Shown here piece by piece: positions 1 to 56,910 of a stretch of DNA of 64,000 nucleotides. The DNA lies in assembly GCA_016208485.1 (NCBI GenBank), contig JACQXY010000049.1, positions 2,800 through 66,799 on the forward strand, written 5' to 3'. Origin of the DNA: Acidobacteriota bacterium. Lineage in GTDB: Bacteria > Actinomycetota > AC-67. The notes below the pieces were generated by a model. It made no database searches, was not told the origin of the DNA, and was given only the letters and a program-made list of their open reading frames with translations. Every line of letters starts with the position of its first letter. Within the stretch, counting starts at the first letter, position 1. The translations under genes were made by a program, and so were the position numbers.

Positions 1-680
1 CGCTTGTACTTGTCAGAAACGCCGGCGTCGGGGTGCCAGTACTCCTGGTCGGCCCACGCGGCCGCCTGCACGCCCTCGTAGGCGGGGCCGCCGCTGTTCG
101 CCGCGACGGAGGCGCTCCCGTCCATGAGGTCGATGAACCAGCGAAGCTCGTTGTACTGCTCGTTGTCGACGTTGTCCCCGGTGCACATCGCGAACGCGAT
201 CGGCACCGCCGTCACCGGGCTCACCCCGACGGCCTGGACCTGCCGGCACATCGCCTCGAGGACCTGGAGCGTGAGCGTCTCCTGCGGCCGGAAGGCCGAG
301 GAGAACGGAATCGACTGGCACCCGTTGCCGGGATCGGCGTAGCGGTCGAGGAACTCCACGCGCGCCGGCGACTGCGCGTCGACGATGTGGGTGTCGGTCA
401 GGCGAGCGAAGTGCAGGAGCGACCGGCGCGCCGGGGACGCCGCGCGCGCGGCCAGCTCGGTCCGGAGGAGGTGCACCTCGCCGGGTCCGGCGAGCAGGCG
501 GTAGTAGGAGCCGCGCGAGCCGGACCCCATGAGCGCGCCCTTCAGGATCGTGGAGTCGAGCGTCGTGCCGCCGGTCGCCGCCCCGGCCGAGAGCGCCCAG
601 CGGAGCCTGGGCGCGACCGAGCCGGCCGCGAGTGCGGCCCCGCCGACCCTGAGGAAGTCCCTCCGGCTGATGCGAGCCAT
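1..680 (-). CDS. Tat-secreted metallophosphoesterase-family protein; the 3' end lies beyond the window start (partial)
   Basis: Minus-strand frame open to the window edge, so it is absent from the ORF track. Manual translation from the ATG at 680-678 reads MARISRRDFLRVGGAALAAGSVAP (twin-arginine signal), then ...HFARLTDTHIVDAQSPARVEFLD (calcineurin-like phosphoesterase D-x-H motif), then ...CTGDNVDNEQYNELRWFIDLMDG... GC3 is high. A GTG at 707-705 is an alternative start. Confidence 0.55.
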   Translation of the reverse strand, partial: MARISRRDFLRVGGAALAAGSVAPRLRWALSAGAATGGTTLDSTILKGALMGSGSRGSYYRLLAGPGEVHLLRTELAARAASPARRSLLHFARLTDTHIVDAQSPARVEFLDRYADPGNGCQSIPFSSAFRPQETLTLQVLEAMCRQVQAVGVSPVTAVPIAFAMCTGDNVDNEQYNELRWFIDLMDGSASVAANSGGPAYEGVQAAAWADQEYWHPDAGVSDKYK

Positions 681-958
681 CGAAGGAGGATTCGACGCCG
701 ACCCCACGACCTCCTGCCGGCGGGTCCGGGCAATCCGGCACTACGGCCCGGCGTGCCGCGCCTCCTCCCGCCGACGCGGAATGCCCGACCTCTCTCGATT
801 CGGGTGGTTCTGCGGAAAGCGTGGGAGGACCTCAGGAGGCCAGAGCACCGGGAAGCCGGCCTTGCGGCAGGAGGGGTCTGAGACTTGCGGATCAGGGGGA
901 GCGACTCATGTGGCGTGAGGGTAGCCCCCGGCGCGTCCCAGGAGTATCCTGAGGTGCG

Positions 959-2206
959 ATGGGATCACCGGCGAGCTATATCCCGCGACTCGCTGATGCC
1001 CCGATCGCCGAACTGCTGGGCGAGGTCCCCGCGATCATGCTCCTGGGACCCCGGGCCACCGGCAAGACCACCACCGCCCGGCGCTTCGCGCGATCCGTCG
1101 TGCGGCTCGACAGCGAGGTCGAGGCGGTGGCATTCCGTGCGGACCCGGACGCTGCGCTCCGGGGCCTGGACGAGCCGGTCCTGCTGGACGAGTGGCAGGC
1201 GGTCCCCGGAGTCCTCGCGGGGGTGAAGCGCGCCGTGGACGACGAGCCGCGGCCCGGGCGGTATCTGCTCACCGGCTCGGTCCGCGGCGACGTCGAGGCC
1301 CCCACGTGGCCCGGCACCGGCCGCCTGATACGGCTCACGATGTACGGGCTGACCGTGCGCGAAGCGGCCCGGTCCGGCGGGCGCGCGCTCATCGCGCGGG
1401 TCCGGGAGTCGGGCATCGAGGGCGTGAGCGTGCCGCGCGACCCTCCGGACCTGCGCGGCTACGTCGAGCTCGCGCTGCGTGGCGGGTTCCCCGAGATGGT
1501 CGAGGACCTCTCGCCGGCGACGCGGTCGCGTTGGATCACAAGCTACGTGGACCAGATGGTCACGCGAGACGCGAAGCAGGCCGACGAGGGACGGGACCCG
1601 GTGCGGCTGCGCCGGTATCTCGAGGCGCTCGCGATCCACACCGGATGCGTCGTCGAGGACCGGACTCTCTACGAGGCCGCCGGAATCAACAGGAAGACCG
1701 CGGCTGCGTACGAGCGTCTCCTGCGCAACCTGATCGTCCTCGAGGCCCTGCCGGCCTGGACCTCGAGCCGGCTCAAGCGTCTGACCCGTGGCGCCAAGCG
1801 CCACCTGGTGGATCCGTCCCTCGTCGCCGGCGCGCTGGGCGTGGATCCCGCCGGGGTGATGCGCGACGGGGTGCTGCTCGGGCGAGTCCTCGAGACGTTC
1901 GTCGTCTCGCAGATCCGTGCCGAGGCGGCGCTCGAGCCCATACCTCCCCGCCTCTACCACCTCCGCGCGGAGCAGGGCCGCCACGAGGTGGATCTCGTCG
2001 CGGAGTTCGGGGCCGGGGACCTCATCGCGGTCGAGGTGAAGGCGGACGCCGCGCCGCGCGCCGGCGCCGCGCGCCACCTCGCGTGGCTGCGCGACGCGGT
2101 GGGCGAGCGGTTCCTGGCCGGCCTCGTCCTGCACACCGGCACACACGTCTACGAGCTGGGCCGGCTCATCTGGGCGGTCCCCGTCTGCGCCCTCTGGAGC
2201 CCATAG
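959..2206 (+). CDS. AAA-family ATPase with a DUF4143 C-terminal domain
   Basis: 415-aa ORF with a Walker A motif (LLGPRATGKTT) and a Walker B-like motif (PVLLDEWQ). The overall pattern matches the common ATPase-plus-DUF4143 protein family. The overlapping long ORFs on both strands have low-complexity R/P/G-rich translations and were discarded. Confidence 0.8.
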   Translation: MGSPASYIPRLADAPIAELLGEVPAIMLLGPRATGKTTTARRFARSVVRLDSEVEAVAFRADPDAALRGLDEPVLLDEWQAVPGVLAGVKRAVDDEPRPGRYLLTGSVRGDVEAPTWPGTGRLIRLTMYGLTVREAARSGGRALIARVRESGIEGVSVPRDPPDLRGYVELALRGGFPEMVEDLSPATRSRWITSYVDQMVTRDAKQADEGRDPVRLRRYLEALAIHTGCVVEDRTLYEAAGINRKTAAAYERLLRNLIVLEALPAWTSSRLKRLTRGAKRHLVDPSLVAGALGVDPAGVMRDGVLLGRVLETFVVSQIRAEAALEPIPPRLYHLRAEQGRHEVDLVAEFGAGDLIAVEVKADAAPRAGAARHLAWLRDAVGERFLAGLVLHTGTHVYELGRLIWAVPVCALWSP

Positions 2207-2315
2207 CCGAGGACCCCGGATCCCCGTTTCGGTCGTGCTCGACAACTTGGCTGCCGGCGTCGCCGCTGAGGAACACCACGGCGAGTATCCCACGCTGCCC
2301 GCTGCCTCCACTCCG

Positions 2316-2515
2316 CGCGCTACGGCTTGGCGTGGCGCGCCGGCGGGCGCCGCCCGCGCGCCCCGGACACCCGCGCGCCCGGGGCGGGGCCGGCCCGGGG
2401 CGGGGCCGAGCGCGGAGCCCGGGGCGGGCCGAGCGCGGAGCGCGGGGCGGGACCGAGCGCGGACCGCGGTCCGAGACGCCGGCCGAGGAAATCCAGCACC
2501 GCGCGATTGACGAGC
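2316..2515. repeat. Copy A of a ~190-bp repeat that duplicates the 3' end of the alpha/beta hydrolase gene at 11199-12236; intergenic
   Basis: Near-identical to 11197-11390 and 3497-3690. All three share ggcctggcgtggcgcgccggcgggcgccgcccgcgcgccccggacacccgcgcgcccggggcggggcc...gaaatccagcaccgcgcgattgacgagct. Each contains an internal ~21-bp tandem unit (ggggcgggaccgagcgcggagc-like) present in 2 to 4 copies. Each also has a GC-rich imperfect inverted repeat. Confidence 0.8.
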
Positions 2516-2738
2516 TAGGGCCATCCTCGACGCACACTTCCACGTGCGAAGCCGACGCCTCGAGCAGCTTTGCCCTCGTCGACGGACCGGCCCCGGGACG
2601 CCACGTCCAGCTCGGAGCATGGGGCACCGTAGCCCCTCCCCTCTCTCGTGACGACTCCCGCGAAGACGAACATGTGGCCTCCTGGACGCGCCGGTGCCTT
2701 CGGCGGGATGAATGCGGGTGGCCCTGGGTGTCCGCGCC

Positions 2739-3419
2739 TCAAGCGCGCGTCGCGCCTTTCCCCGGCCTCGCTGCCGTCATGGCAGCAGCCAGGGCAGCGA
2801 CCGTTCCGACGACGAGCGTGATCACAGCCGCCTGGATCGGGCGGAAGACATCGTCGAAGCCACGCATGTCCGAGGAGCATCCCTCTCCGATCCAAGCCCA
2901 CCTGCCGCCCGGACCGGGCGCGTGTGCCGACATCAATCCGTCCGGCGTGAAACAGAGGGAGGAGGTCCAACCCAGCAGGACGGGAATGCTGAGTCCCGCA
3001 AGGACGACACACGCAAGCGTCGTTTGGACCGACGCTCTTCGGCGCACGCCGCTCGCCCCCACCCTGAGGCGCGCCGCGAGGAGGTACAGCAGTCCGGGAG
3101 CGAACAGATAGGCGTAAGCACCCAGTCCGACAACGGCCCCGGCGAGCCGGAAGACCCCCGCTACTCCGGCCAGACGCAGGAGTTCCGGCCTGCCGCGAAG
3201 GCCGAGAGCCGCGAGAGCGGCGGGCCACGCCGAAAGGAGCGCGACCCCCCACATACCCCAGACGACCGTGAGCGAGCCGCCCGTGCCGAGGGGAGCCACC
3301 ATCCTGCCGTCGAGACGCGTGGGGTTGGCCAGGTAGAGGCCGACGGCGACGTCGGCGGCAATCGCGAGAAGACCGATCACGAGTCCCGTCGTGTTACGAC
3401 CAGCGACACGCATTCCCAC
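2739..3419 (-). CDS. Hypothetical polytopic membrane protein
   Basis: 226-aa ORF with several hydrophobic helices (LVIGLLAIAADVAVGLYL, GVALLSAWPAALAALGL, LACVVLAGLSIPVLLGW). It is the last gene of the minus-strand secreted-protein operon. No recognisable catalytic motif. Confidence 0.5.
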   Translation of the reverse strand: MGMRVAGRNTTGLVIGLLAIAADVAVGLYLANPTRLDGRMVAPLGTGGSLTVVWGMWGVALLSAWPAALAALGLRGRPELLRLAGVAGVFRLAGAVVGLGAYAYLFAPGLLYLLAARLRVGASGVRRRASVQTTLACVVLAGLSIPVLLGWTSSLCFTPDGLMSAHAPGPGGRWAWIGEGCSSDMRGFDDVFRPIQAAVITLVVGTVAALAAAMTAARPGKGATRA

Positions 3420-3496
3420 GCCCCCGAACGTCCTTCACGCATCAACATCGCGCCTGGCTTGGATCCTCCTCAGCCAGACTACGTGGCGGGGGCAGG

Positions 3497-3690
3497 ATTG
3501 GCTATGGCCTGGCGTGGCGCGCCGGCGGGCGCCGCCCGCGCGCCCCGGACACCCGCGCGCCCGGGGCGGGGCCGAGCGCGGAGCCCGGGGCGGGACCGAG
3601 CGCGGACCGCGGTCCGAGACGCCGGCCGAGGAAATCCAGCACCGCGCGATTGACGAGCTTCGGGTGCTCGATCAGCGCGCCGTGCGCGCG
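3497..3690. repeat. Copy B of the hydrolase-3'-end repeat; carries a ~70-codon fragment of the hydrolase C-terminus
   Basis: The minus-strand ORF 3502-3735 translates to ...AHGALIEHPKLVNRAVLDFLGRRLGPRSALGPAPGSALGPAPGARVSGARGRRPPARHARP. This matches the last ~70 residues of the 11199-12236 hydrolase (GGTHGALIEHPKLVNRAVLDFLG...). It sits between two operon genes. Confidence 0.8.
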
Positions 3691-3695
3691 CGGGC

Positions 3696-4472
3696 TCAGA
3701 TGGTCATGACCCAGAGAGCGGGGATGGCGCCCCACTCATCGGCACCAACTCTCAGCTGGCATTGCCACAACCCTTCGGTGGGCTCGGAGACGTAGATCCA
3801 TGGCGAGTACCCAATCGCCTCGTATTCCTGCCCCTCAGGACCGCTCACCTCGGCCCAACCCAACTCCGTGCCGAACGCGGCGAACAGATAGCCCTTCGTG
3901 GAGAACTCGTAGGTCTGTACAGCCTCCAGCGACACTCCCCACAACGCGCCAACCGGCCCCATGAGGGCTGCGGCGCCCCCGTGGAAATCGGTCGGGAACG
4001 CATACACAGCGTGGCCAAGCGGCTTCGGAGTTGACGACACCAGAACCCCGCTCACCTCCACGCGGCAACGGATCTCCAGCCCCCATCCCGCCCACGCCGC
4101 TCGAAGAACGGCCGCGCTTCCACCCGTGCTCCCGACTCCCGAGAAAGCGTTGGCAGGTACCGTCCCCTCATGTTCTGCCATGGTCCCGGACCATCCCATC
4201 TCCCCCACTTGCCAGCCAGCGAGAGAGTCCGTCGTGCCGAAGTCCGGAAAAAAGGCCGCCTCGGTGACCCGACCCGAGGTCTCCGTCACCGTCATGGCGA
4301 AGAACCCGGCAGTTGTGCCAGAACTCGGGCTCCTTCGGCACGTCAGGCTGAACTCGGTCGCCGGTGGAAGCGCTGTTTCCACCGCCTCGAAAACACTCGC
4401 GGTGCGAGGCGCAATCCCTGAGAGGGAACTCGTCGGCGTAAGCGCCATGACGAGACTCGTGGTCACGATCAT
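3696..4472 (-). CDS. Secreted hypothetical protein
   Basis: ORF 3696-4523, with the start chosen at the internal Met giving MIVTTSLVMALTPTSSLSG (signal-peptide-like). The mature part is Gly/Thr/Ala-rich with no recognisable domain. It lies in the same minus-strand operon as the large secreted proteins. Confidence 0.5.
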   Translation of the reverse strand: MIVTTSLVMALTPTSSLSGIAPRTASVFEAVETALPPATEFSLTCRRSPSSGTTAGFFAMTVTETSGRVTEAAFFPDFGTTDSLAGWQVGEMGWSGTMAEHEGTVPANAFSGVGSTGGSAAVLRAAWAGWGLEIRCRVEVSGVLVSSTPKPLGHAVYAFPTDFHGGAAALMGPVGALWGVSLEAVQTYEFSTKGYLFAAFGTELGWAEVSGPEGQEYEAIGYSPWIYVSEPTEGLWQCQLRVGADEWGAIPALWVMTI

Positions 4473-4556
4473 GTACGGCGCCCGATGCTCAAACCGACGC
4501 CCTCCAGCCGGAATCCACCTCACGCGGTAGATGTCACCTCCCGACCGATCACGTCC

Positions 4557-4961
4557 TCACCCCGGTGTCGGTGGGTCGGTCCCACGCGCGCCGCTCGTCG
4601 TGTCCACACTGGCAGGATCCGGTTCACCGCCGTGTCCCAATCCCTCGCCAGGGCCACCGTCTCGGCATGCCCGCCACAGCCATCTCCCGAGCAGGACGAA
4701 ACCAGCGCCGGGTATCGCCAACAGCCACAAGTCGCGGGTCCGGTACCCGGCGCGAATGGCGGCCACCTGGGCTCGTCTTATCCAGAACCCGAACATCGCG
4801 AGGGCCAGGATGAGTCCCTCCCATCGAAGGGGCCCCGTCAGTTTGCCCAAGAACACGCGATAGCCCAGGCCTGCCGCAAATGATATTCCCGTCCAGAAAC
4901 CCAGGAACTGTACGCCCCAACAGATCCCGAACGGCGGTGCGAGCCTGCCCCTTGTCACTTC
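4557..4961 (-). CDS. Small membrane protein with 3 predicted TM helices
   Basis: The ORF 4557-5099 overlaps the upstream gene by more than 100 nt if the first Met is used. A GTG at 4961 follows gaggtacgggga (SD-like) and gives MTRGRLAPPFGICWGVQFLGFWTGISFAAGLGY..., which retains all three hydrophobic helices. The overlap with the stop of the upstream gene is then 17 nt. Confidence 0.4.
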   Translation of the reverse strand, partial: EVTRGRLAPPFGICWGVQFLGFWTGISFAAGLGYRVFLGKLTGPLRWEGLILALAMFGFWIRRAQVAAIRAGYRTRDLWLLAIPGAGFVLLGRWLWRACRDGGPGEGLGHGGEPDPASVDTTSGARGTDPPTPG

Positions 4962-4974
4962 CCCGTACCTCAAC

Positions 4975-7809
4975 CTACGCGAAACAATTGGAGTCGGTGA
5001 TAGTGAACGTGATGCTCGGGGTGCGGAGATAAAGCGGCGAGCTGCGGACGGGGTCATGGAAATCAAACTTCGCATGGGCCCCCCGGTTGAACGCTGCATG
5101 GACTTTCACGGTAACCCGAAGCTGAGCGTAGAAGAACCAGTACTCGGCTTCGCCCATCGCCGCCGTCCAAGAGTAGGTACCTGACTTGGTTTGGTCGCCT
5201 GGGTTGTTGATGGATATGTCCCCAGCAGCGTGCGCGCCGGCGAACGCCACGCTACCCCCGTCACCGTTTGGCTCGGAGCCGATAATCTCATGGCCCTTGT
5301 GAATGCTCGCGTCCGCATCGGCCCATGATTCCCCCAGCCAGACCGGAGGGATAGGCGACAATATTGATGTGTCCGCCTCCGGTCGGCCCCGGCCTCCGTA
5401 CGGCATGGAGACAGTGACATGCATGGGCCTGGGGCAAGACCCCGACTTGCAGAAAAGCCCAACGGCGAACCCAACGCGCCCACTCCCATCGGCCAGGTCA
5501 TCGTTGTTGAAGCCCCACCCTGCCTGCGACGCCTCGCCCCGGACCAGGACGGCATTTCGTCCCGGGGTGGGGTCCGGATCCGCAACGATCTCAGCGTGAC
5601 CCCCGCTGGACCTCTGCTCCGTCGGGGGAGGGAATTCCTTGTAGAAGTAGCCGGCGTCGGCCTCGTTGAGCGTAAGCGTCTTCTTGCATGTGCCTCCGGC
5701 CAAGCTTTCCGGGATTACGGGTAGAAGCCCGGCAGGGGAACCAACGGTCCTTGTTGGACCGGTAGCGGATATCTCGGCGGGGAAGAGATCGCAGGGAGTG
5801 GGCGAGGCGAAAAACAGCGAGCAAATCTCCTGCGCGGTCGAGTTCGAAGAGATCCCTGGCTGGGCGGTCGCCGCAGCCCATGCGTCGGCCACGGCATCGA
5901 AGAGTACAGAATGCCGACTCGTGTCGGCCGTGGCGAGTGACTCGAATCCGTGAAAACGCGGCGAGACGGCTACAGTCCTGCTCGAGCACTTCGGATCAGC
6001 GAAGGATCCCCTCACCACGAACCCGTAGCTGAGGCGCGTTCCTTCGGGCAAGCTCGCACCTGGAACCACCAAGGAGTAGGAACTCGCTCCGGTCCCTGCC
6101 GCAGTCAAGTGCTCGACGGGTCCGCCGTTCAGCGCGTAGTAGAGGATCACTTCGTCCACGCTCAGGCGGGCCGTATCGACCTGAATCGAAAGCGCCCGAT
6201 CCATGGCCGGGGCGATGGCGACTTCTTCGGCGTGGCTGACGGCAGAGTCACAGGCGCTCACGTGGACATCGATGATCGGTGGATCCCAAGCCGCCCATCG
6301 TCCCCCCACGGGGTCGGGAGAGCACGGTTCCTGTGCGGTGGCGGGATCGGCGCACGCATGCGCGCGGGGATCCCGAGTCCCTACGGGGGCCATCTCGAGG
6401 GTGGCGTCATTCCAGGTCGCAGGCACATTGGCCACGAGAGTCCCGAGTTCGGCCGTCGCCGGCACGGAGGCGAGTGTGGCCTCCCCCGTGGCGGCTTCGA
6501 CCCAGACCGGCACGCCCACCGTGCGGGTCGCCCACGCAGAGTCGCCTGCGCGGTAGGCAGGGATCGCCACGCGCGCACCGTACAAGTTCGTGCTCACCAT
6601 GGCCGACTCGAGCCCCACGTCGTGCGTAATCGTGGCGCGGCCCGCATGGCGGCTTCCTGCAACCGTAACGGGGGCGCTCGCCAGGTGGAGGGGCACGTTC
6701 TCGCACGTCGCCCTCTTCATCCCCGTGGTCAGGTCGACCTCACTCGAGACACCGCACGACGTTGGTGGAATGTCCGCCACAGAGGTCTGAGGAACAATGT
6801 TGGTCGGCAGGAACCCGCCGCCCTCGGCGAGAGGCCCGTGCTCAAGGACGGTTTCGTTCCCCGCGTAGTCACGTGCCCGGACGGAGAACCGGTAGAGGAT
6901 ACCCGCCACGAACTGAAGGGGGGACGTCTTCGCGAGCCCGGCGTTCCAGAACGCGGCGGGGGTCGAACTGTTCCCGCGGTCATCCTCCAGCGCAAAGACG
7001 ATCGTGGCGGGATCGAGGTTGGAACCGCCGGAGTCGGTGATGAGCGCCTCGAGCGGCTGGCCGCTCGGGAAGATGGTATTCGACAGGTCCCCCGGGAGGA
7101 GACCAGTGATCTCGGGGGCGGTGTTGTCGACGACATACGGGAGCGATCGCGCCGGCGAGAGAGAGACTCCCGAGGAACACTCCCGGGCCACATAGGTGAG
7201 GAGATACGTGCCCTCCTGAGTGAGCTCGGCCAAATCCACGGTCCAGGACCAGGTCGAACCATCGCCGCCCGACGCCGTCAAGGTGGCCGGGGAAGACGTC
7301 CCCGTACGAGAGTCCGTGACGTACACGCACGACCGCCCGCCGCTGTCGCCGGGGGAGCCGGGAAGAGGTGCCCGGGAGAGGACCGTGAGAACGCCCTGGG
7401 CGGGCCCCCCAGCCGTCGAGAAAACGGCGCGCGAGAGGTCGCCGCTGACCTTGTAGAGAAGAGTGAAGTCCGCTGTCGTGTCGAGAGGAAGGGTCACGTT
7501 CACGGTCTGCGACGCCGGTTCGGTGTCGGCGCGCGAGGCATCCAACGTGTAGCTGCCCAAGTTGCTCTCCCCAAGCTCGTAGGCCCCGGCCGCATCCGCT
7601 TGAACCGTCTGGGAACCGTCGGTGACGGAAGCGCCCGGCAGGGGACGCCCGATGGCGTCTGCCACAACACCGCGGAAGTGGAAGAGCACGACGCCGCCAC
7701 CGATCTCCGAAGCAACAGCCGGTGGAGCCAAGGACAGCAGAAGCGACAGGATCCCGATCCCCGCAGTCTGAACTGACCCGATCCTTGCCCTGTTTGCGCC
7801 CATGATCAT
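4975..7809 (-). CDS. Large secreted protein (944 aa) with an N-terminal carboxypeptidase-regulatory-like (CarboxypepD_reg / Ig-like) domain; function unknown
   Basis: The start ATG at 7809 follows gggagggg. The signal peptide is MIMGANRARIGSVQTAGIGILSLLLSLAPPAVAS. The motif GVVADAIGRPLPGASVTDGSQTVQADAAGAYEL is a typical CarboxypepD_reg beta-sandwich. The rest is a long Thr/Ser/Gly/Ala-rich beta-rich sequence. GC3 is high. Confidence 0.7.
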   Translation of the reverse strand: MIMGANRARIGSVQTAGIGILSLLLSLAPPAVASEIGGGVVLFHFRGVVADAIGRPLPGASVTDGSQTVQADAAGAYELGESNLGSYTLDASRADTEPASQTVNVTLPLDTTADFTLLYKVSGDLSRAVFSTAGGPAQGVLTVLSRAPLPGSPGDSGGRSCVYVTDSRTGTSSPATLTASGGDGSTWSWTVDLAELTQEGTYLLTYVARECSSGVSLSPARSLPYVVDNTAPEITGLLPGDLSNTIFPSGQPLEALITDSGGSNLDPATIVFALEDDRGNSSTPAAFWNAGLAKTSPLQFVAGILYRFSVRARDYAGNETVLEHGPLAEGGGFLPTNIVPQTSVADIPPTSCGVSSEVDLTTGMKRATCENVPLHLASAPVTVAGSRHAGRATITHDVGLESAMVSTNLYGARVAIPAYRAGDSAWATRTVGVPVWVEAATGEATLASVPATAELGTLVANVPATWNDATLEMAPVGTRDPRAHACADPATAQEPCSPDPVGGRWAAWDPPIIDVHVSACDSAVSHAEEVAIAPAMDRALSIQVDTARLSVDEVILYYALNGGPVEHLTAAGTGASSYSLVVPGASLPEGTRLSYGFVVRGSFADPKCSSRTVAVSPRFHGFESLATADTSRHSVLFDAVADAWAAATAQPGISSNSTAQEICSLFFASPTPCDLFPAEISATGPTRTVGSPAGLLPVIPESLAGGTCKKTLTLNEADAGYFYKEFPPPTEQRSSGGHAEIVADPDPTPGRNAVLVRGEASQAGWGFNNDDLADGSGRVGFAVGLFCKSGSCPRPMHVTVSMPYGGRGRPEADTSILSPIPPVWLGESWADADASIHKGHEIIGSEPNGDGGSVAFAGAHAAGDISINNPGDQTKSGTYSWTAAMGEAEYWFFYAQLRVTVKVHAAFNRGAHAKFDFHDPVRSSPLYLRTPSITFTITDSNCFA

Positions 7810-7877
7810 GAATCCCCTCCCGTTTCCGTCTGCCCGCTTGCCTGCCGACATCCGCCGCCTGGTTCCCGGAAACCGCT

Positions 7878-8561
7878 TCAGAGGAGCGAAGAGTCCTCGG
7901 TCACAACGGCGGCGTGGATGAGTCCGCTCACGGAGTCAATCCAGTAGAGATCCGCACGGTTGTCTGCCCCAGATGCAGCCCGGACAGACCTCCCGCCAAC
8001 GGATCCCGTAATCCGAAGCCCCGACACGCCAAAGAAGATGCCATTCTCGTGCACCGGGTCTCGCAGGACGTTGTCCCCGACCAGCGTCTTGCAGATCTCA
8101 AGGCCCAAGGCAGCGTTGGCAGGACACAGCACAACGCTGTCGTGCCCGATGTCTCCGAGCCCCCAGTCGGTCTCGATCAGAACCTTCACCTCACCGGTGC
8201 GGGGCAACACCGCCTCGAGTCGCACGGCAGGGGCCTGCGCCACCCCAACGACAACGCTGAGGCTGCGGGCCGGCACGACCATGTCCTCCACGTAGGGAAG
8301 CCACGTGGTCACCCCGCCGGGGGCGGGCCGCCCGGGCCCAATGAATATCACCCGGACACCCCCATCCATGCGCCATGCCGCGAGGCACGCGAAGTATTCG
8401 ACCGCGGGGTCCGCGCTCTCCAAGCACCCCACGTATCCGACCGGCGAGGACTCGACCCTCGCAAAGACCACCTCTGCGGGGGTGGCGTGCGCGCTCAACG
8501 CCAGGCCTGACACGAGCACTGCCCCGGCGAGCACCGCAGTGATCGAGCGTACGGGCTTCAT
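7878..8561 (-). CDS. Secreted hypothetical protein (228 aa)
   Basis: Internal Met of ORF 7878-8750 gives MKPVRSITAVLAGAVLVSGLALSAHA (signal peptide). It sits 14 nt downstream of the stop of the preceding large gene and 26 nt upstream of the next, so the operon is tightly packed. Confidence 0.6.
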   Translation of the reverse strand: MKPVRSITAVLAGAVLVSGLALSAHATPAEVVFARVESSPVGYVGCLESADPAVEYFACLAAWRMDGGVRVIFIGPGRPAPGGVTTWLPYVEDMVVPARSLSVVVGVAQAPAVRLEAVLPRTGEVKVLIETDWGLGDIGHDSVVLCPANAALGLEICKTLVGDNVLRDPVHENGIFFGVSGLRITGSVGGRSVRAASGADNRADLYWIDSVSGLIHAAVVTEDSSLL

Positions 8562-8574
8562 CGATCCTCCCTCC

Positions 8575-11037
8575 TCATGAGCACTGGAAGTCGAGAGCGA
8601 ACTGGTAGGCGAGCGTGGCAACCAACTGATACGTCTCCGGCGTCGGGTCGATCCGGAACTCCGTGCCGGTCGTGATCTGAACTCGCCGGGCAATGCCCAG
8701 GTCTGCGGTGGGGTCGGGAACCTCAGTGAGTTCCTCGAGTTGCCATCCATTCGCGGTCGCCGAGGCGCTCGGGGTCGTGCGTCCGAGCGCGTCTACCCGG
8801 CCGGCGCGGTCCCGCACGTAGTACCCGTCCCCCTGTCGCAGCACCACCAGGCCCGAGTTGGCCGTCGAGACCTGAAATGCGGCTTCGGTGGGACCTGCGT
8901 CCTCTGAGTTCCCACTCACGGCGCCGAGAAGAACATCGAGCTTGGTGTGGGTGTCGCGCCCGTCCGGGGGCTTGAGGCTCCAGGTTCCCCCCAAGATCGC
9001 GTCGAGTGAGCCATCCAGCGCGGCCGAGCCGGCGACGAGCCTGAATGTCCTCCCGGTAAGACTCCCCCCCTGGCCGTTCCCTTGGCCGTTCGGGCAGGAC
9101 ATGACGCCGTCGTCGGCATGGTTCTGCTGCCAGAGCGGGGAACCGCCCGGCTCGTCGTACACCCAGGCGTTGAGCCGGCCGGACCAAGCCACCTCCGTCG
9201 GCCCGGCCAGTGGAGGAAGCCCCGTGCACAGGTTGCGCTCCTCGACAGCAAGGGTCACGGTCGGGCACGTGACGGCCAACCCGGTCGCCCATGAGTCCCA
9301 CCACACACAACCGCCGGATGGGGGACTTGGCGTGCACTCCTGTCTCACGATCCCTTCGTCGGATCGATCAGGTGCAGTCACGACGCCCATGTACGCGGGG
9401 GCCCACTTACCCTTGCGGACCTGCGCCGACCCATCTACCTCGCACTCGACCCTGTTGGCCGACCCGCCGCGTACCCCTGAGAAGCAGACACCGATGGTTC
9501 CCGCCACGGGGACCCGACCGGTGAGCCCGTTCCCAAGGAACGCCCCCACAGAGACAGAAGGTCCTAGAGGTACGGTCTTGGCGACCAGCGTGGCAGTCGA
9601 GCCCCGGGTGCCGTACCCGAGAGGGACATCCACCGCGATGTCGGCGAGCGCCATCTCTGCGGTCGGAATGCGGGCCGTCAAGGGATGGGCCGAGGGCGAC
9701 AGAGTCACCCCGTCGTGAACAGCGCTCGCTGCCGGAACCTGCGTCAACACGCCGGTCGCGAGGCCGGTCTCGTTCTGAAACCGCACCTCGACTTCCCCCA
9801 GCGCGAAAGGCCTCTCAAGCTTCCCGTAGCCCACCCACGTGGAAGCGTCGAGTTCCTCCTCGAACCCTGAGACCTGCACACGCGGGGAGTGGAAAGTGAT
9901 CTGGGAGGGGGGAATCACCGAGCCATCGGGGTTCACCTCCACGGTTTCTTCCAAGAGGGCCGCAGTGGCAGGAGAGGCAGTGAGCGTGACCAAGGTGAAG
10001 AGGAACGAGTCCTGGGCGAGGTTCCCGGCGAGGTCGCGCGCGGAAAGTTCCACGAGGTGGATCCCGGGGGGGATACCTGAACCGGCGACGCTGACGGTGG
10101 CCCCAGATACGCTCGCCTGCGCCGGTGTTCCATCGATAGCAAGGGAAAGGCTTGCGGGATCGACGCCGGAGGTCGCGTCCGCCCAGGTGGCAGAGATGCT
10201 TGCAAGCTCGAGCACGTCGGCAAAGCGCGCCGGGGAGGTGGACGTGACCTCTGGGGGTAGGCTGTCCGCGGCGTAGGCGTCCGCCTTCTGCTGGCTAAGC
10301 CGCAGCCCCTCGGGAAGATCGCAGTCAGAGGGCGCGAGGGCATCGAGTGCGCAAGCGCGAACGGAGTAGAGACCGTCCGGGGAGCCTTGGGCAACGCCGA
10401 AGGATCCTATCCAGCGCCGCCACCCGTTGGGAGAACCGAACTCCGAGTCGAAGGAAAGTTCGATTGCGTCGCCGGAGGGAAGCTCGGCCACGACCTTCGT
10501 CCCCTCTCTTGGCGCCGTTGAGACCGTCTCCACCTGGATGGTCGCCGGCGCGGAGGGATTGAAGGCGTCGGGGTCAAGGCGCAACCCGAGCAGGTGGGGC
10601 AGCCGGAAGTCCTGGGGCAGGGCCTGGGCGACGAGGGGATTGTCGATCTGCACGGAGCGCCAGAGGAAGAGGGCATGGTCCGCGGTGAGCTTCACGGGGC
10701 CGTCCCCTGCGACCCTGATCCGGTAGCGGCCCCCCGAGTCGGTCTCGACCAGGCCGTAGGTCCAGTAGACGACGGCACCCGCGATCGGGTTGCCACGCAC
10801 ATCTGAGACGGTGCCGGAGATGTCGACCTTCACCAGCACGCTTGCGGGGATGCAATCGGTCCCGCAGCTCGCCGCGGGGCGCGGGGGCGGCGCGGGATCC
10901 GGAGCACATAGCACGCCGCAGACCGGGGCTTGCATCGCGCGGCCGGGGACGGCTGGAAGCATCAAGGAGGCGACCAGGGAGACAACGAGGAACCGGACTG
11001 CCAGCGCGAACGAGCGAGGTCGCGACACATCTCCCAC
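8575..11037 (-). CDS. Large secreted protein (820 aa) with a CarboxypepD_reg-like domain; function unknown. First gene of the operon
   Basis: The start GTG at 11037 follows AGGAGG. The hydrophobic N-terminus is RSFALAVRFLVVSLVASLMLPAVPGRA. A CarboxypepD_reg-like segment is DISGTVSDVRGNPIAGAVVYWTYGLVETDSGGRYRI. The protein is cysteine-containing with a Gly/Ser/Thr-rich body. Confidence 0.7.
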   Translation of the reverse strand: MGDVSRPRSFALAVRFLVVSLVASLMLPAVPGRAMQAPVCGVLCAPDPAPPPRPAASCGTDCIPASVLVKVDISGTVSDVRGNPIAGAVVYWTYGLVETDSGGRYRIRVAGDGPVKLTADHALFLWRSVQIDNPLVAQALPQDFRLPHLLGLRLDPDAFNPSAPATIQVETVSTAPREGTKVVAELPSGDAIELSFDSEFGSPNGWRRWIGSFGVAQGSPDGLYSVRACALDALAPSDCDLPEGLRLSQQKADAYAADSLPPEVTSTSPARFADVLELASISATWADATSGVDPASLSLAIDGTPAQASVSGATVSVAGSGIPPGIHLVELSARDLAGNLAQDSFLFTLVTLTASPATAALLEETVEVNPDGSVIPPSQITFHSPRVQVSGFEEELDASTWVGYGKLERPFALGEVEVRFQNETGLATGVLTQVPAASAVHDGVTLSPSAHPLTARIPTAEMALADIAVDVPLGYGTRGSTATLVAKTVPLGPSVSVGAFLGNGLTGRVPVAGTIGVCFSGVRGGSANRVECEVDGSAQVRKGKWAPAYMGVVTAPDRSDEGIVRQECTPSPPSGGCVWWDSWATGLAVTCPTVTLAVEERNLCTGLPPLAGPTEVAWSGRLNAWVYDEPGGSPLWQQNHADDGVMSCPNGQGNGQGGSLTGRTFRLVAGSAALDGSLDAILGGTWSLKPPDGRDTHTKLDVLLGAVSGNSEDAGPTEAAFQVSTANSGLVVLRQGDGYYVRDRAGRVDALGRTTPSASATANGWQLEELTEVPDPTADLGIARRVQITTGTEFRIDPTPETYQLVATLAYQFALDFQCS

Positions 11038-11106
11038 CGCTGCCGCCTCCTGGGATTCGCAGTACTATGCCCGGGCTAGAGTAAATGCCGCGTATCGAAG
11101 AGTTGC

Positions 11107-11141
11107 GCCATGCATTGTAGCTGCCCCGGAAGGGCCGGCAA
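11107..11141 (-). promoter_or_regulatory. Candidate sigma-A-type promoter of the secreted-protein operon
   Basis: The minus strand reads TTGCCG, then a 16-nt spacer, then TACAAT (plus-strand attgta at 11114-11119 and cggcaa at 11136-11141). The intergenic segment is locally lower in GC. The 5' UTR to the GTG at 11037 would be about 70 nt. Confidence 0.4.
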
Positions 11142-11196
11142 CGCGCGCAGCGTGCTCTTCTTGTTCTTCTCGTTCCTCGAGCTGCCTCGTTCCGCG

Positions 11197-11390
11197 CGCT
11201 ACGGCCTGGCGTGGCGCGCCGGCGGGCGCCGCCCGCGCGCCCCGGACACCCGCGCGCCCGGGGCGGGGCCGAGCGCGGAGCGCGGGGCGGGACCGAGCGC
11301 GGAGCGCGGTCCGAGACGCCGGCCGAGGAAATCCAGCACCGCGCGATTGACGAGCTTCGGGTGCTCGATCAGCGCGCCGTGGGTTCCCCC
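11197..11390. repeat. Copy C of the ~190-bp repeat, forming the 3' end and tail of the hydrolase gene
   Basis: Aligned by eye with 2316-2515 and 3497-3690. It differs from them in the copy number of the internal tandem unit. Confidence 0.8.
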
Positions 11391-12236
11391 GGGGATCAGC
11401 GCCAGCTCGGCGTCGGGGATCCGCGCCGCCATGACCCGCCCGAGCCAGGAGGGCGTGAACCGGTCGCGCTCCCCGACCACCACGAGAGTCGGGGCGGCGA
11501 TCTCGCGCAGCAGGTCCTCGGCGGAGTGGCGGTGCATCGCCTCGGCCATCTTCATCATCACCAGCGGATCGAGCGAGCCGAGGTGCCGGTAGTAGAGCCG
11601 CATGTCGGCGTACCGGGCGGCCGGGCCGAGCGCCCCGGCGGCCTGGGCCACCCGGTGCGGAAGCGGCGAGGCGAACAGGGCCCGCCAGGCGAGGAGCGTC
11701 GGGCGCGGGAACGTCTGGATCGCCAGGCGCGCGGCCGGGAACAGCCGCTCCATCCACCGGGAGTCGTAGAAGGTCGCGACCGGGCTCGCGTACGGCCCGG
11801 TCACCGCCACGATCGCCCGCACGCGCTCGCGGAGCAGCCGGTAGGTCTCCAGGCACACCTGGACCCCCATCGAGTGGCCGAGCACGGAGATCTCCCGGAT
11901 GCCCTCGCGATCGAGGATCCCGGCAAGATCGGCGGCGTTCCGCTCGATCGCGAAGTCCTCCGCGCGCAGGCGCATCGCGCGCCACCCGGGGCTCCGCGGG
12001 AGCCCCGACACCCCGGTGCCGCGGTAGTTCCAGACGAGCACGCGGTAGCGGCGCGCGAGCGCCGGCGCCAGGTATCGCCAGAAGTTGTCCGGACAGCAGT
12101 AGCCGGCGCAGAGCGCGACCACGTGCGGCCCGGCCCCGCGGATCGTGTAGGCGACGTGCGTGCCGTCGCTGGCGACGAGGCAGCGTTCCTTCGGGAAGAG
12201 GGTCCCACCGTCCCCGCGGACCCGAAGGTATGCCAC
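11199..12236 (-). CDS. Alpha/beta-hydrolase fold protein
   Basis: 345-aa ORF with the nucleophile elbow GHSMG and a C-terminal ...GGTHGALIEHPKLVNRAVLDFLG typical of the family. An unusual extra 40-aa Pro/Arg/Gly tail (RRLGPRSALGPAPRSALGPAPGARVSG...) is encoded by the repeat element. Confidence 0.75.
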   Translation of the reverse strand: MAYLRVRGDGGTLFPKERCLVASDGTHVAYTIRGAGPHVVALCAGYCCPDNFWRYLAPALARRYRVLVWNYRGTGVSGLPRSPGWRAMRLRAEDFAIERNAADLAGILDREGIREISVLGHSMGVQVCLETYRLLRERVRAIVAVTGPYASPVATFYDSRWMERLFPAARLAIQTFPRPTLLAWRALFASPLPHRVAQAAGALGPAARYADMRLYYRHLGSLDPLVMMKMAEAMHRHSAEDLLREIAAPTLVVVGERDRFTPSWLGRVMAARIPDAELALIPGGTHGALIEHPKLVNRAVLDFLGRRLGPRSALGPAPRSALGPAPGARVSGARGRRPPARHARP

Positions 12237-24208: not shown

Positions 24209-24747
24209 CTACGCCGGCCGATTCTCCTCGGAGATGTCGGCGAGCACTGGGTTCCCCCGGTCGCGCTCGGATAAGTGCGGCTCCCCGGGAGGCCAGGCGA
24301 TCCCGAGCGCCGGATCGTCCCAACGGACCCCCAGCTCGTCGGAGCCGTCGTAGTAGTCGTCCGCCAGGTAGACGAGCGTAGCATCCGTGAGCGCCCAGAA
24401 GCCGTGCGCCACCCCCGGCGGCACGTACAGGCCACCCGCCGCCTCACCGTCCAGCTCGAAGCTCTCGCTCGCCCCCCTCGTCGGCGAGGACTCCCGGAGG
24501 TCGTAGAGCCCTGCGAGCATCCGGCCGGTGATGACCGTCACGTAGTCCGCCTGGAACAGGTGGTAGTGCATCCCCCGCAGGACGCCGGCCCGCGAGTCGC
24601 TCCGACTCCCCTGGACCATCTCGCGCGCGCCGGGGATCCAGGAACGGCGGAAGGCCTCCACGAAGCGCCCGCGCGCGTCGGGCCACTGCCCGGGCCGAAC
24701 GTGGTAGACCCCGGAGATGCGCGCGGACTCCCAGACCTCGGCCACGG
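24209..24747 (-). CDS. rmlC: dTDP-4-dehydrorhamnose 3,5-epimerase
   Basis: ISGVYHVRPGQWPDARGRFVEAFR..., ...GVLRGMHYHL.QADYVTVITG..., ...VPPGVAHGFWALTD... are cupin RmlC motifs. The start is set at a GTG (VAEVW), because the track ORF extends into the 16S spacer. No rmlA, rmlB or rmlD adjacent. Confidence 0.75.
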
Positions 24748-24892
24748 CGCGGGAGTGTACCCGGGAACACCCTGCCGAGAAGCAAAGAGGGCGCCCGCGT
24801 AGGACGCCCTCGAGGCTTGCGCCGGGGAAGCTGCATAGCGAGGACGAGAGTGGGTTGACCTGATTGTCGGGAGTTACCCCGAAGGGTTTACT

Positions 24893-26719
<1,827 letters not shown>

Positions 26720-26947
26720 CCTCCATCGAGTTCTCACTCAGACCGGCCGGAGCCGGCCAGGTTTGATCTCTATGCAAGGCGTTACTTCAGGCGCCCACTC
26801 TCTGCGGATCCCTCGGCCCGCTCACGCGAGCCTCAGGAGTGCGTGTCCTCGCTATGCAGTTTTCAAGGCGCAAGCATGCCAAACTCCAAGCCCTACCCGG
26901 TCTTGGGGTCTGGCGAACTTTCAAGGCCGCCTCAGACGACCGCCGCT

Positions 26948-28579: not shown

Positions 28580-29761
28580 TCAGACGGCGCAGGATCCGGT
28601 CGCGACCGGTTGGGTGCGGCGGCGCGCGCGAGAGAAAGCTCGCTCCAGCTCGGTCTCGGCGAGCGCGTAGGACTCGCTCGAGTTGTCGGCCGCCGCCGCG
28701 AAGACCATCCCCCGAACGCGCCCGGCGGCATCCACGAACGGTCCGCCGGAGTTCCCCTGCCGGACCTTCGCTCGGAGCACGTATATCTCGCGCTGGACGA
28801 GCTTGCGGGAGTAGATGTCGCGGCCGAGGGCGTCGGTGCGCGCGCGCACCCTGGCAGGGGAGATCTTGCGCGGGCCCCCGCCCGGGTAGCCGATCGCGGC
28901 CCCGTCCGTCCCGCGCGCGGCGTGGTCCGGATCGATCCGGAGCGCACCGCCGGGCAGCCGCGCCAGTCGCAGGAGCGCGATGTCCTTCGAAGTGTCCACG
29001 TACACCACGGTCGCCGGGTAGCGGGTCCCGTCGGGCTCGATCACGCGGCTGTCGCGCGTCCCGGCCACCACATGCGCCGCCGTGAAAACCAGCCGGTCCC
29101 CGACCGGGAAGCCGCTCCCGTCGACGAGCCCTCCGCACCCCCGGCTCTCGATCTTGTAGGTGAGTCCGGCCGCGGCCATGATCTCGGGGTCGCCGGCGAG
29201 CGACGCCGGCGCCGGCTCCACGCCGGGCGCGAGCGACGGGTTGAGCTGGGCGAAGACCTCCGGGAAACCCGACCGGCTGAGAAACCGGCCGATCTCGGCG
29301 AAGAACGCCGGCGGGTGGGGGGCGACGTGATCGGTCCAGCGAAGGATCGCCGATCCCCGGATCGCGGCGGCCAGCTGCGGCGAGGGGCCGGCCTTGAAGG
29401 TGATCCCGAGGAACCACGCGGACACCAGCGCGAGGAACCCGGCGATGAGCGAGCCGGCGACCATGTCGATGTCGTGCGCGAGGCGCGCGGTGATCTTGGT
29501 TCGGATCCGATGTCCGAGGATCGCAGTCAGTGTCTCCACGAGGAACGCGACGCCGAGGAACACTCCGATCGCGATCCCGGAGCGCATGAGCGGGGACCTC
29601 GGGTTGGCGGCCTCGACGACCCGTGGGGCGATCGACCCGCCGGCGAAGAGCCCGATGACGAAGCCGCCCCATGAGAACGCCTGCATAAGAGCGCCCCGCC
29701 GGTAGCCGCTCGCCAGCCCGGCGACAATGGCCGCCACCACGACCAGATCCACCCAGTTCAC
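28580..29761 (-). CDS. MarP-like membrane serine protease (CvpA-family TM domain fused to a trypsin-like S1 protease)
   Basis: Four N-terminal TM helices. The protease domain has TAAHVV (His), DIALL (Asp) and GNSGGP (Ser). The architecture matches mycobacterial MarP. Confidence 0.8.
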   Translation of the reverse strand: MNWVDLVVVAAIVAGLASGYRRGALMQAFSWGGFVIGLFAGGSIAPRVVEAANPRSPLMRSGIAIGVFLGVAFLVETLTAILGHRIRTKITARLAHDIDMVAGSLIAGFLALVSAWFLGITFKAGPSPQLAAAIRGSAILRWTDHVAPHPPAFFAEIGRFLSRSGFPEVFAQLNPSLAPGVEPAPASLAGDPEIMAAAGLTYKIESRGCGGLVDGSGFPVGDRLVFTAAHVVAGTRDSRVIEPDGTRYPATVVYVDTSKDIALLRLARLPGGALRIDPDHAARGTDGAAIGYPGGGPRKISPARVRARTDALGRDIYSRKLVQREIYVLRAKVRQGNSGGPFVDAAGRVRGMVFAAAADNSSESYALAETELERAFSRARRRTQPVATGSCAV

Positions 29762-31086: not shown

Positions 31087-31880
31087 CTACCCCGCCAGGT
31101 AGTCGTCCACCGTCTTCGCGCGCGCGAGCCCGGCCGCGCGGCCGCGCGCGGCGAGCACCTCTGCCATCTTGCGGGACGCCTCGTCGATCATCTCGCTCCC
31201 GAACATGACCGCCCCGCGGCGCTCGATCTCGCTCGCGTGCCGGTAGTGCTCGAGGAGCGCCTCGGCCTTGTCGAACTCCTCCTGGCTCGGAGTGAACACC
31301 TCGTTCAGGACCTGGACCTGGTCCGGGTGCAGCGCCCACTTGCCGTCGAAGCCGAGCGCGCGAGCGCGTCTCGCCCCGGTCCGGAACCCGTCCAGGTCCC
31401 GGATCAACAGGTAGGGACCGTCGATGGACTGGAGGCCGCGGGCGCGCGCGGCGATGTTGATGTGGCTGAGCACGTCGTGGAAGTGGTCGAGGCTCTCGTA
31501 GCCGGGCACCGGCGGTCACCGTCGGCAATCCGAGCGAGGCGCTCATGTCGGCCGGCCCGAAGATCAGGTCCTCCATCCGGTCGCTCGCGCCGGCGATCTC
31601 GACGATCTCGATCACGTCCCGGTACGCCCACTTGGTGTAGACGCCGTTGATGCGCACGACCTTGGCCGGCGCGCGGCAGGAGTTCTCCTTCAGCGCCTGG
31701 ACGATGTTCGCGCGCGCCGCGGGGGTATGCTCCTTACCCGAGGCGCTGTTCCCTTCGATCCGCCGGCGCGCCCCGATTGGAACGACACCGTTGCCGAGAG
31801 CGCCGTCCGAGAACCGCGCGGCCCGTGATGCGGCCGAGACGTCGCACGCTCCCCGGATCGGGCTGCGATGGCTCGGCCTC
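31087..31880 (-). pseudogene. Degenerate citE-like gene (HpcH/HpaI aldolase or citryl-CoA lyase beta family)
   Basis: The C-terminal half is intact (...YESLDHFHDVLSHINIAARARGLQSIDGPYL...LGFDGKWALHPDQVQVLNEVFTPS...). A +1 frameshift lies in a GCCC run near 31485. The N-terminal half has ...VVRINGVYTKWAYRDVIEIVEIAG..DRMEDLIFGPADMSASLG but lacks about 50 aa (the LPKAES region). The metal-site region is degenerate (RRIEGNSA where DLEDxV is expected). Confidence 0.55.
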
Positions 31881-47047: not shown

Positions 47048-47066
47048 GGGTCAGCGGAGCGGAAGG

Positions 47067-55863: not shown

Positions 55864-55944
55864 AAGTCCTCCTCTGCAAGGATCGCACGAACCGTGGCCA
55901 CCGACAATGCCCTCTTGGGCTCGGCCGGTTAGGATTTCGCGCCG

Positions 55945-56748: not shown

Positions 56749-56910
56749 TCCCGCTCTCCGACCCGGACGCCGAGGAGGCCCCCCGCGCCCCGAATGAGCT
56801 CGTGGCCGCCGCGCGGCGCGCCGCAACCTCAGCGCCCGACCGCAGGTGGAGATCGCTCCAGGCGTCGGACCATGGACTCAGTCGGGAGGGCAACCTAGAA
56901 TGCGGGCACA

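Follow-up and report, generated by a model that had tools for sequence, protein, structure and literature searches.

What do the large exported proteins encoded side by side on one strand of this DNA do, and do they form one unit? The window, the whole stretch of 64,000 nucleotides analysed here (Acidobacteriota bacterium, contig JACQXY010000049.1), holds six minus-strand open reading frames, which an earlier note had read as one dedicated 8-kb operon for a cell-surface, S-layer or adhesin-type assembly. All six were confirmed at the positions given there (Table 1). The single operon proved to be a composite; elsewhere only its first three genes, termed BigA, the small protein and BigB, are kept together. 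We propose that these three constitute an accessory extracellular binding (adhesin-like) module on an accessory island, with a probability of roughly 45%.

Table 1. Positions of the features in the window (numbering of the 64,000-nucleotide stretch)
Feature	Position	Strand	Remarks
Repeat A	2312-2541	.	Third copy of the hydrolase 3' end; 39-nt internal expansion
Polytopic membrane protein, 226 aa, HY775_08465	2739-3419	-	Sole gene between repeats A and B; no family
Repeat B	3494-3684	.	Hydrolase 3'-end copy; closes the five-gene cassette distally
275-aa ORF	3696-4523	-	GenBank HY775_08470, called there as 199 aa; no family
Possible small membrane protein, three hydrophobic segments	4557-4973	-	Start TTG 4973 or GTG 4958
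BigB, 944 aa	4975-7809	-	Signal peptide, CarboxypepD_reg, Ig-like domains, conserved middle, exchangeable head
BigB head, aa 510-944	4978-6282	-	Model: CBM56-like beta-sandwich, helical linker, long-stranded beta domain
Small exported protein, 227 aa, HY775_08480	7878-8561	-	ATG preceded by GGAGGGAGG; 13 nt past the BigA stop
BigA, 820 aa	8575-11037	-	Signal peptide, CarboxypepD_reg, about four more beta-sandwich domains, Cys-rich C-terminus
Sigma70-like promoter match TTGCCG-16-TACAAT	11114-11141	-	9/12 positions; ~75 nt upstream of BigA
Repeat C	11191-11381	.	Functional 3' end of the alpha/beta-hydrolase gene; aa 285-345 plus stop codon
Alpha/beta-hydrolase gene	11199-12236	-	Neighbour whose 3' end is repeated

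Six other metagenomic loci have BigA, the small protein and BigB in the same order (L002, L004/5, L006/7, L008 and L013, with L009 sharing it partly). The 3-TM ORF, the 275-aa ORF and the 226-aa protein have no counterparts in the related loci. The ORFs that follow BigB, small membrane or exported ones, differ among the window, L013, L006 and L008. Beyond these loci the module is very rare. A short-peptide pattern scan of 185,579 reference genomes gave a single 41-residue match at chance level, in Intestinibacillus, and similar scans of JGI metagenomes and viral contigs gave no match; scans of this kind can miss divergent relatives. A tblastn search of plasmids with both giants returned nothing, no phage relative was found, and the window contains no paralogs of the cluster proteins elsewhere. 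A 16S gene lies in the window at 25180-26729.

The region is divided into two cassettes by three direct repeats, A, B and C. Repeats B and C share 98% identity over 184 nt, a match of which none is expected by chance, and the last of the six genes (226 aa) occupies a separate repeat-bounded cassette, cut off from the rest by repeat B. Of repeats A and B, both described before as embedded in the 3' half of the operon, A falls outside the interval then considered. GC3 is 0.67-0.80 in the cassettes compared to 0.90-0.95 in the flanking genes; repeat A adjoins host-like DNA, an AAA_14/DUF4143 gene with a GC3 of 0.91. In other loci, mobile-element genes adjoin the module. Judged from the sequence, the region is probably a ~7.7-kb accessory island that arrived by horizontal transfer, with the 3' end of the hydrolase gene as its insertion site. 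The lower GC3 is also seen in the other loci and so may belong to the genes themselves, in which case it would not prove a recent transfer. No integrase or recombinase gene is present in positions 1-12236, and an exact look-up of the hydrolase found no match. The genes beside the repeats encode the AAA_14/DUF4143 protein, the hydrolase and a phosphoesterase-like ORF, the last assigned by eye. The earlier note had overlooked both the island insertion and the exchangeable head of BigB.

The promoter proposed upstream of BigA does exist as a sequence, and it is the sole sigma70-like match in a pattern scan of positions 2200-11500; as evidence it is weak, since 0.6 matches are expected by chance. 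The DNA that holds it is island-specific. Intergenic gaps, previously put at 14-26 nt, measure 13 nt between BigA and the small protein and 68 nt between the small protein and BigB. BigA starts at GTG 11037, preceded by AGGAGG, and BigB at ATG 7809, preceded by GGGAGGGG; in both cases the N-termini of homologs speak for these starts and against those in GenBank, which give shorter proteins of 754 and 752 residues, respectively. The small protein, formerly counted as 228 residues, has 227 from ATG 8561. All three proteins possess a ribosome-binding site and a hydrophobic N-terminus, as do their homologs, and the N-termini are signal-peptide-like, in agreement with the signal peptides claimed before. 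They are acidic, with pI values of 4.6-5.0.

In BigA, the CarboxypepD_reg domain (residues 73-125, nt 10663-10821) is followed by further beta-sandwiches that run to about residue 500. It scores 27 bits against Pfam PF13620, under the gathering cut-off of 32.3; a precomputed PF13620 hit exists on the 754-residue GenBank form (P0007) and on most BigA homologs, and the region was modelled as a confident beta-sandwich. The model displays confident beta-sandwich domains over residues 68-500 and is unusable beyond residue 520. A Foldseek search found this confident part to resemble the Ig-like domain chains of SGBP-B, SiiE, a large-adhesin extender and Sap. A TonB-dependent receptor, also considered, was rejected, as Plug and TonB_dep_Rec gave no hits and BigA was modelled as a string of sandwiches.

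The C-terminal part of BigA (residues 520-820) is Cys-rich, ends in an invariant Cys and carries the invariant motifs NLC-G, PLWQQNH and CPNG, which could mark an active site. A profile search with the alignment of this region recovered only three members that were already known. The giants had been described as beta-rich and without a recognised catalytic motif, and all three proteins of the triad are indeed beta-rich and devoid of a recognisable catalytic domain: no curated family matched, and when the six proteins were scanned against Pfam, NCBIfam and PHROGs, only CarboxypepD_reg and weak Ig-like hits came up. Clear homology to a well-described system was likewise looked for by sequence in curated families and the PDB and was not found (0 PDB hits with single-sequence and profile searches). 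One or both giants might be new extracellular enzymes, glycan-degrading or protein-modifying, to which the beta-sandwiches are mere accessories; we consider this unlikely, as the Pfam, NCBIfam and PDB profile searches gave no catalytic family and the island has no transporter or sugar-metabolism genes.

The two giants have more in common than the N-terminal CarboxypepD-like domain to which the earlier note had confined their similarity: about 290 residues, comprising three beta-sandwich domains, are shared at 24% identity (E 5e-5). There are 14 Cys in each giant, and many of these are invariant. The CarboxypepD_reg domain of BigB (residues 46-117, nt 7459-7674) reaches 37.2 bits and passes the 32.3 cut-off of PF13620. 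Such chains might instead be structural envelope components, with BigA and BigB self-assembling into an S-layer or sheath lattice. The Ig-like chains match the assembly domain of the S-layer protein Sap (Foldseek, E 7e-5), residues 46-182 of BigB match the anammox S-layer family NF052345 locally, and the proteins are acidic and predicted to be exported. However, the score against NF052345 (Kustd1514-type) is 24.6 bits compared to a cut-off of 1400, and the six proteins contain no SLH hit at E up to 1 and no other anchor domain. A GC3 of 0.77-0.80, compared to 0.90-0.95 in housekeeping genes, is unlike that of a highly expressed gene and argues against a highly expressed S-layer, as does the placement of a very rare module on an island, with no occurrence found in the reference genomes. 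Literature searches on CarboxypepD_reg in connection with S-layers turned up nothing relevant. Altogether, we regard the S-layer suggestion as improbable.

The middle region of BigB is conserved up to a Cys-x-Pro-Asp-Pro motif (residues 496-500, nt 6310-6324); six of the eight homolog alignments end just past it, at residues 501-526, and the remaining two reach residues 626 and 725. The heads beyond this junction vary among homologs, with FG-GAP repeats in one and a Gly-rich repeat region in another. The head in the window has an invariant PTPC motif and a Cys close to the C-terminus, and the same unit is also found on its own, in free-standing secreted proteins 450-500 residues long; its family has 30 members among 1.84 billion representatives, these free-standing forms included. 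The CBM_56 hits stay under the cut-off of Pfam PF22184 (27 bits), and the 944-residue BigB itself gives none. Comparison of the head with viral structures (Foldseek, BFVD) gave only TM-scores of at most 0.21, the matches being tail proteins that bear FN3 domains, and was set aside as uninformative. With hhalign, no relationship emerged among the C-terminus of BigA, the head of BigB, full BigB and the small protein.

The same junction invites another reading, in which BigB would leave the cell through Sec as a polymorphic effector or bacteriocin, with a toxic, exchangeable head on a conserved stalk, and the small downstream membrane ORF would provide immunity. The conserved N-terminus with a C-terminus swapped past a fixed motif, the varying ORFs after BigB and the mobile genomic context are consistent with it; however, no recognisable toxin domain was found in the variable C-terminus, and we find this reading quite doubtful. 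The candidate immunity position is taken by the 3-TM ORF, which does have the three hydrophobic segments described earlier, but its coding signal is weak, it is absent from GenBank, and it has neither annotation nor homologs. It overlaps the end of BigB unless started at TTG 4973, and a form started at ATG 5099 overlaps by 125 nt. The next product, the 275-residue one, exists as an ORF, whereas the signal peptide for which it was called secreted is doubtful. In a wider version, which we offer as a long shot, BigB would be the delivery stalk of an unrecognised Sec-dependent polymorphic effector system of uncultivated high-GC bacteria, with heads that are swapped at Cys-x-Pro-Asp-Pro and also occur free-standing, BigA and the small protein as scaffold, and small downstream membrane ORFs as partners, either for immunity or as receptors; the whole unit would travel as a cassette without an integrase, picking up a host gene's 3' end.

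The small protein belongs to a weakly conserved family with one invariant Cys. Its LPRTG sequence, together with a three-gene arrangement in which a small protein stands between two large Ig-like ones, recalls a sortase-assembled pilus or a wall-anchored MSCRAMM-type adhesin. This LPRTG is nevertheless internal (residue 120 of 227), followed by ~105 residues and no hydrophobic tail; the giants lack LPXTG and end in FQCS and NCFA, and no Sortase domain occurs among the cluster proteins or the scanned neighbours. The check for SLH and sortase signals advised in the earlier note thus found neither an SLH domain nor a C-terminal sortase signal, and the pilus reading, with its C-terminal sorting signals missing, was rejected as largely refuted and is hardly credible.

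Returning to the binding module, we propose that all three proteins would be exported through Sec. BigA and BigB would form elongated stalks, each built of a CarboxypepD_reg domain plus Ig-like beta-sandwiches and each displaying a disulfide-stabilised C-terminal head, with the small protein as a putative co-exported partner or adaptor. The assembly may bind an external ligand, probably a glycan; it would serve for surface binding in the manner of an adhesin and not as an enzyme, and the specificity of BigB might be changed by swapping the head behind the conserved Cys-x-Pro-Asp-Pro junction. The 3-TM ORF, the 275-residue ORF and the 226-residue protein would be strain-specific cargo outside this core. 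No anchoring motif was found, so the proteins may simply be released. Most likely, the general kind of binding device is a familiar one, and this particular module figures in no database description.

If this reading is true, the triad would represent a family of extracellular binding proteins that is both new and very rare, from uncultivated high-GC bacteria, characterized by a fixed three-gene architecture, two unknown disulfide-rich domains and a clear domain-swapping junction. The locus also offers a clean case of cassettes inserted in tandem where a protein-coding gene ends, with no visible recombinase. Of modest practical value are the gene starts, improved over GenBank, and the domain boundaries for structural and glycan-binding work.

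Among known systems, the locus resembles integrative islands at gene 3' ends in its direct repeats of the target 3' end, two tandem cassettes and atypical composition, but here the target is protein-coding, the repeats are long (190-230 nt), and neither the DNA between them nor that next to them has genes for an integrase, an excisionase or transfer. With WapA/Rhs and CdiA it shares a conserved N-terminal body, a C-terminus exchangeable past a short motif and a mobile gene pool, whereas YD or FHA repeats, a toxin domain and a clear immunity pair are missing and the only export signal is that of Sec. The likeness to Bacillus anthracis Sap and the anammox Kustd1514 family is one of multi-domain beta-sandwiches with local similarity only; the module differs from both in having no SLH or other anchor, a score far under the family cut-off, a rare island as its seat and codon usage not of the highly expressed kind. 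Compared to the beta-1,3-glucan-binding CBM56 (BhCBM56, 5t7a), the head has 14% identity, stays under the Pfam cut-off and has no attached glucanase. The likeness to SiiE, the large adhesion protein extender 6xi3 and Bacteroides SGBP-B (6e57) lies in an exported chain of Ig-like or FN3-like domains with a distal binding module, which is predicted here, and Foldseek E-values to proteins of this type range from 6e-8 to 1e-5. In contrast to these, with which it has no sequence homology, the module is without a type 1 secretion signal, a lipoprotein box or a Sus context; its heads are new Cys-rich domains, and it is organized as a fixed triad that includes a small partner.

ORF calling located all six minus-strand ORFs where the earlier note had placed them, and its coordinates and account of the proteins proved largely right. 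The two large products, BigA (820 aa) and BigB (944 aa), are identical to GenBank HY775_08485 and HY775_08475, respectively, and the small protein encoded between them is HY775_08480, with 227 residues from ATG 8561 instead of the 228 first assigned. BigA starts at GTG 11037, with AGGAGG 8 nt upstream, and the BigB start (ATG 7809) directly follows GGGAGGGG. The intergenic gaps, previously given as 14-26 nt, measure 13 nt between BigA and the small protein, holding GGAGGGAGG, and 68 nt between the small protein and BigB. The GenBank versions of HY775_08475 (752 aa) and HY775_08485 (754 aa) appear truncated at the start: both lack the hydrophobic N-terminus, or putative signal peptide, and the BigB version is also missing a CarboxypepD_reg domain kept in every homolog. 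Since homologs keep the removed N-termini, the longer versions are better. Sequence inspection revealed in all three proteins a charged N-terminal region, a ~20-residue hydrophobic stretch and an Ala-x-Ala-like site. The proposed promoter hexamers do lie at 11141-11114, but a single match, where chance alone would give 0.6, is in itself no evidence of a promoter. Downstream of BigB, a 3-TM ORF started at ATG 5099 would overlap BigB by 125 nt, and TTG 4973 or GTG 4958 makes a likelier start codon; the ORF has a weak codon-position signal (GC1-3 = 0.64, 0.61 and 0.72), and the GenBank annotation has no gene at this position. The 275-aa ORF, listed as 199 aa in GenBank, showed no clearly hydrophobic N-terminus, at odds with its description as secreted.

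Homologs of the two large proteins are extremely rare. Among 5.8 billion clustered proteins, 6 were found for BigB and 10 for BigA, three of the latter being alike only in an Ig-like stretch. Pattern scanning of 185,579 reference genomes returned no true relative, only a 41-residue chance-level match; scans of JGI metagenome contigs and of viral contigs found no relatives, and tblastn against plasmids gave no matches. The gene order BigA, small protein (183-213 aa), BigB is kept in the metagenomic loci L002, L004/5, L006/7 and L008, while the middle gene in L013 encodes a 131-aa CarboxypepD_reg-only protein and L009 has BigA with two small genes. Because the 3-TM, 275-aa and 226-aa ORFs have no counterpart in any homologous locus compared, the triad appears, from gene content, to be the functional unit. 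The six-gene, 8-kb operon proposed earlier gives way to a three-gene module within a repeat-bounded island.

Two 48-52-nt repeat probes each match exactly the three direct repeat copies A, B and C, where chance would yield none. GC3 is 0.67-0.80 in the genes between the repeats and 0.90-0.95 in the hydrolase, acyl-CoA dehydrogenase, PPIase, MetH and the AAA_14/DUF4143 gene beyond copy A. We infer that the 3' end of the hydrolase gene was the insertion site of two tandem cassettes; the cassette between C and B would comprise five ORFs, and that between B and A the 226-aa membrane protein alone. No integrase was found in 1-12236. In other loci, too, GC3 of the module is below that of the adjoining genes. 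A RecD-type helicase (AAA_30/RecD-SH3/UvrD_C_2) adjoins the triad in L002 (1-1308), an IS110-family transposase beside module genes and a convergent BigB-like fragment occur in L009 (1-834 and 5299-7098), and RHH or PIN genes adjoin the module in L001 and L008. Low GC3 across loci and these neighbours therefore point to an accessory, mobile gene pool, and we regard the module as rare, syntenic and probably mobile.

Features of the window around and beyond the three-gene module
Feature	Position	Strand	Remarks
Gene off window start	1-740	minus	twin-arginine-like signal SRRDFLR; host-like GC3 0.90; by eye resembles secreted metallophosphoesterase
Repeat A	2312-2541		direct copy; 39-nt internal expansion
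Repeat B	3494-3684		direct copy; 98% identical to C over 184 nt
BigB	4975-7809	minus	
Small protein	7878-8561	minus	
BigA	8575-11037	minus	
Repeat C	11191-11381		direct copy; genuine 3' end of alpha/beta-hydrolase gene
Alpha/beta-hydrolase gene	11199-12236		residues 285-345 and stop codon spanned by repeat C
RmlC-like ORF	24209-25030		dTDP_sugar_isom domain from aa 104
Group I intron match	24952-25239	minus	full-length model (RF00028, 74.3 bits); overlaps last 60 nt of 16S; just upstream of RmlC-like gene
16S rRNA gene	25180-26729	minus	complete
CvpA (Colicin_V) + Trypsin_2 fusion	28580-29761	minus	mycobacterial MarP type
HisKA_3 kinase	31647-33290		
1170-aa ORF	43535-47047	plus	no Pfam match; next, 537-aa PD40-repeat protein (region 43535-48680)
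827-aa PD40 protein	54343-56826	minus	

Alignment of BigA and BigB extends over ~290 residues (24% identity, E 5e-5) and closes with ARD-x-AGN, a motif characteristic of Big_5/Big_13-like domains; the two therefore have three domains in common, not the N-terminal one alone as had been stated. The BigA family is conserved from end to end, with the invariant motifs NLC-G, PLWQQNH and CPNG and ten invariant Cys, one of which sits 2-3 residues from the C-terminus. The AlphaFold2 model of BigA (7 sequences, mean pLDDT 57) is confident for aa 68-500 only, where it predicts about five β-sandwiches, and a Foldseek search of the model against the PDB retrieved only sandwich-domain chains (SGBP-B, SiiE, large-adhesin extender, PorU, Sap and teneurin). 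The stalks of BigA and BigB are β-sandwich chains. For aa 520-820 of BigA the model fails, and this C-terminal part leaves room for a new enzyme, which we consider unlikely; nothing recognisable as a catalytic, toxin, SLH or sortase feature was found in the triad, as the earlier note had held for catalytic motifs. A Sec-dependent polymorphic effector with a membrane immunity protein is more doubtful still, and a sortase pilus is effectively excluded.

Conservation in the BigB family runs to Cys-x-Pro-Asp-Pro (aa 496-500), and BLAST alignments to BigB end at aa 501-526 in six of eight homologs, reaching aa 626 and 725 in the other two. Alternative heads comprise FG-GAP repeats in the homolog P0003 and a Gly-rich repeat region in the L009 fragment, which begins at this junction and has no Pfam match there. 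In an exhaustive HMMER search of 1.84 billion representatives, the BigB head (aa 510-944) had 30 relatives, some of them stand-alone proteins (~450-500 aa) that bear putative signal peptides; others are larger and alike only over the first 170-300 residues, beside CarboxypepD_reg, Big_13, PD40 or CHU_C. Invariant in the head family are a PTPC motif and a Cys placed 1-3 residues before the C-terminus. The head model (14 sequences, pLDDT 72, pTM 0.67) predicts a β-sandwich, a helical linker and a domain with 17-21-residue strands. Pfam CBM_56 matches 6 of the 14 members, all under cut-off (best 25.4 bits vs 27), and does not match BigB (W944) itself. The BigB head is exchangeable, and its first domain is CBM-like. 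In L011 (1-14811), the free-standing head homolog P0017 sits with a 470-aa paralog and a 445-aa PD40 protein, and this group divergently adjoins an extracellular contractile injection system (eCIS) operon (sheath, gp19 tube, Pvc16_N, AAA ATPase and eCIS_core), an arrangement that could be chance or could reflect a connection with the injection system. The 1170-aa ORF and the 537-aa and 827-aa PD40 proteins of the window have no similarity to the cluster proteins.

The small-protein family shows weak conservation, with a single invariant Cys. The internal LPRTG, at aa 120 in the protein of the window and present in 3 of 6 members, was rejected as a canonical sortase signal, being followed by ~105 residues without a hydrophobic tail. 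Profile comparisons among the BigA C-terminus, the BigB head, the small protein and full BigB revealed no hidden relationship.

The window has a G+C of ~70% and belongs to a 72,144-bp contig of a metagenome-assembled genome labelled "Acidobacteria bacterium", beside which the actinobacterial flavour of the MarP-type fusion and HisKA_3 kinase is odd; a PASTA kinase occurs in one homologous locus. From these actinobacterial-flavoured families we presume that a single membrane may enclose the host. No 23S gene lies anywhere within the 64-kb window.

BigA, the small protein and BigB are probably exported, Cys-rich and acidic, and their earlier description as an uncharacterised surface assembly is reasonable. 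An S-layer or sheath seems improbable, given the low codon adaptation, the rarity of the module and the missing anchor. We instead favour, at a probability of roughly 0.45, that the three proteins work jointly in the extracellular space as an adhesin-like binding device, whose ligand is possibly a glycan and whose specificity would be diversified by head exchange. The module is of a kind already familiar, the multi-domain exported binding protein.
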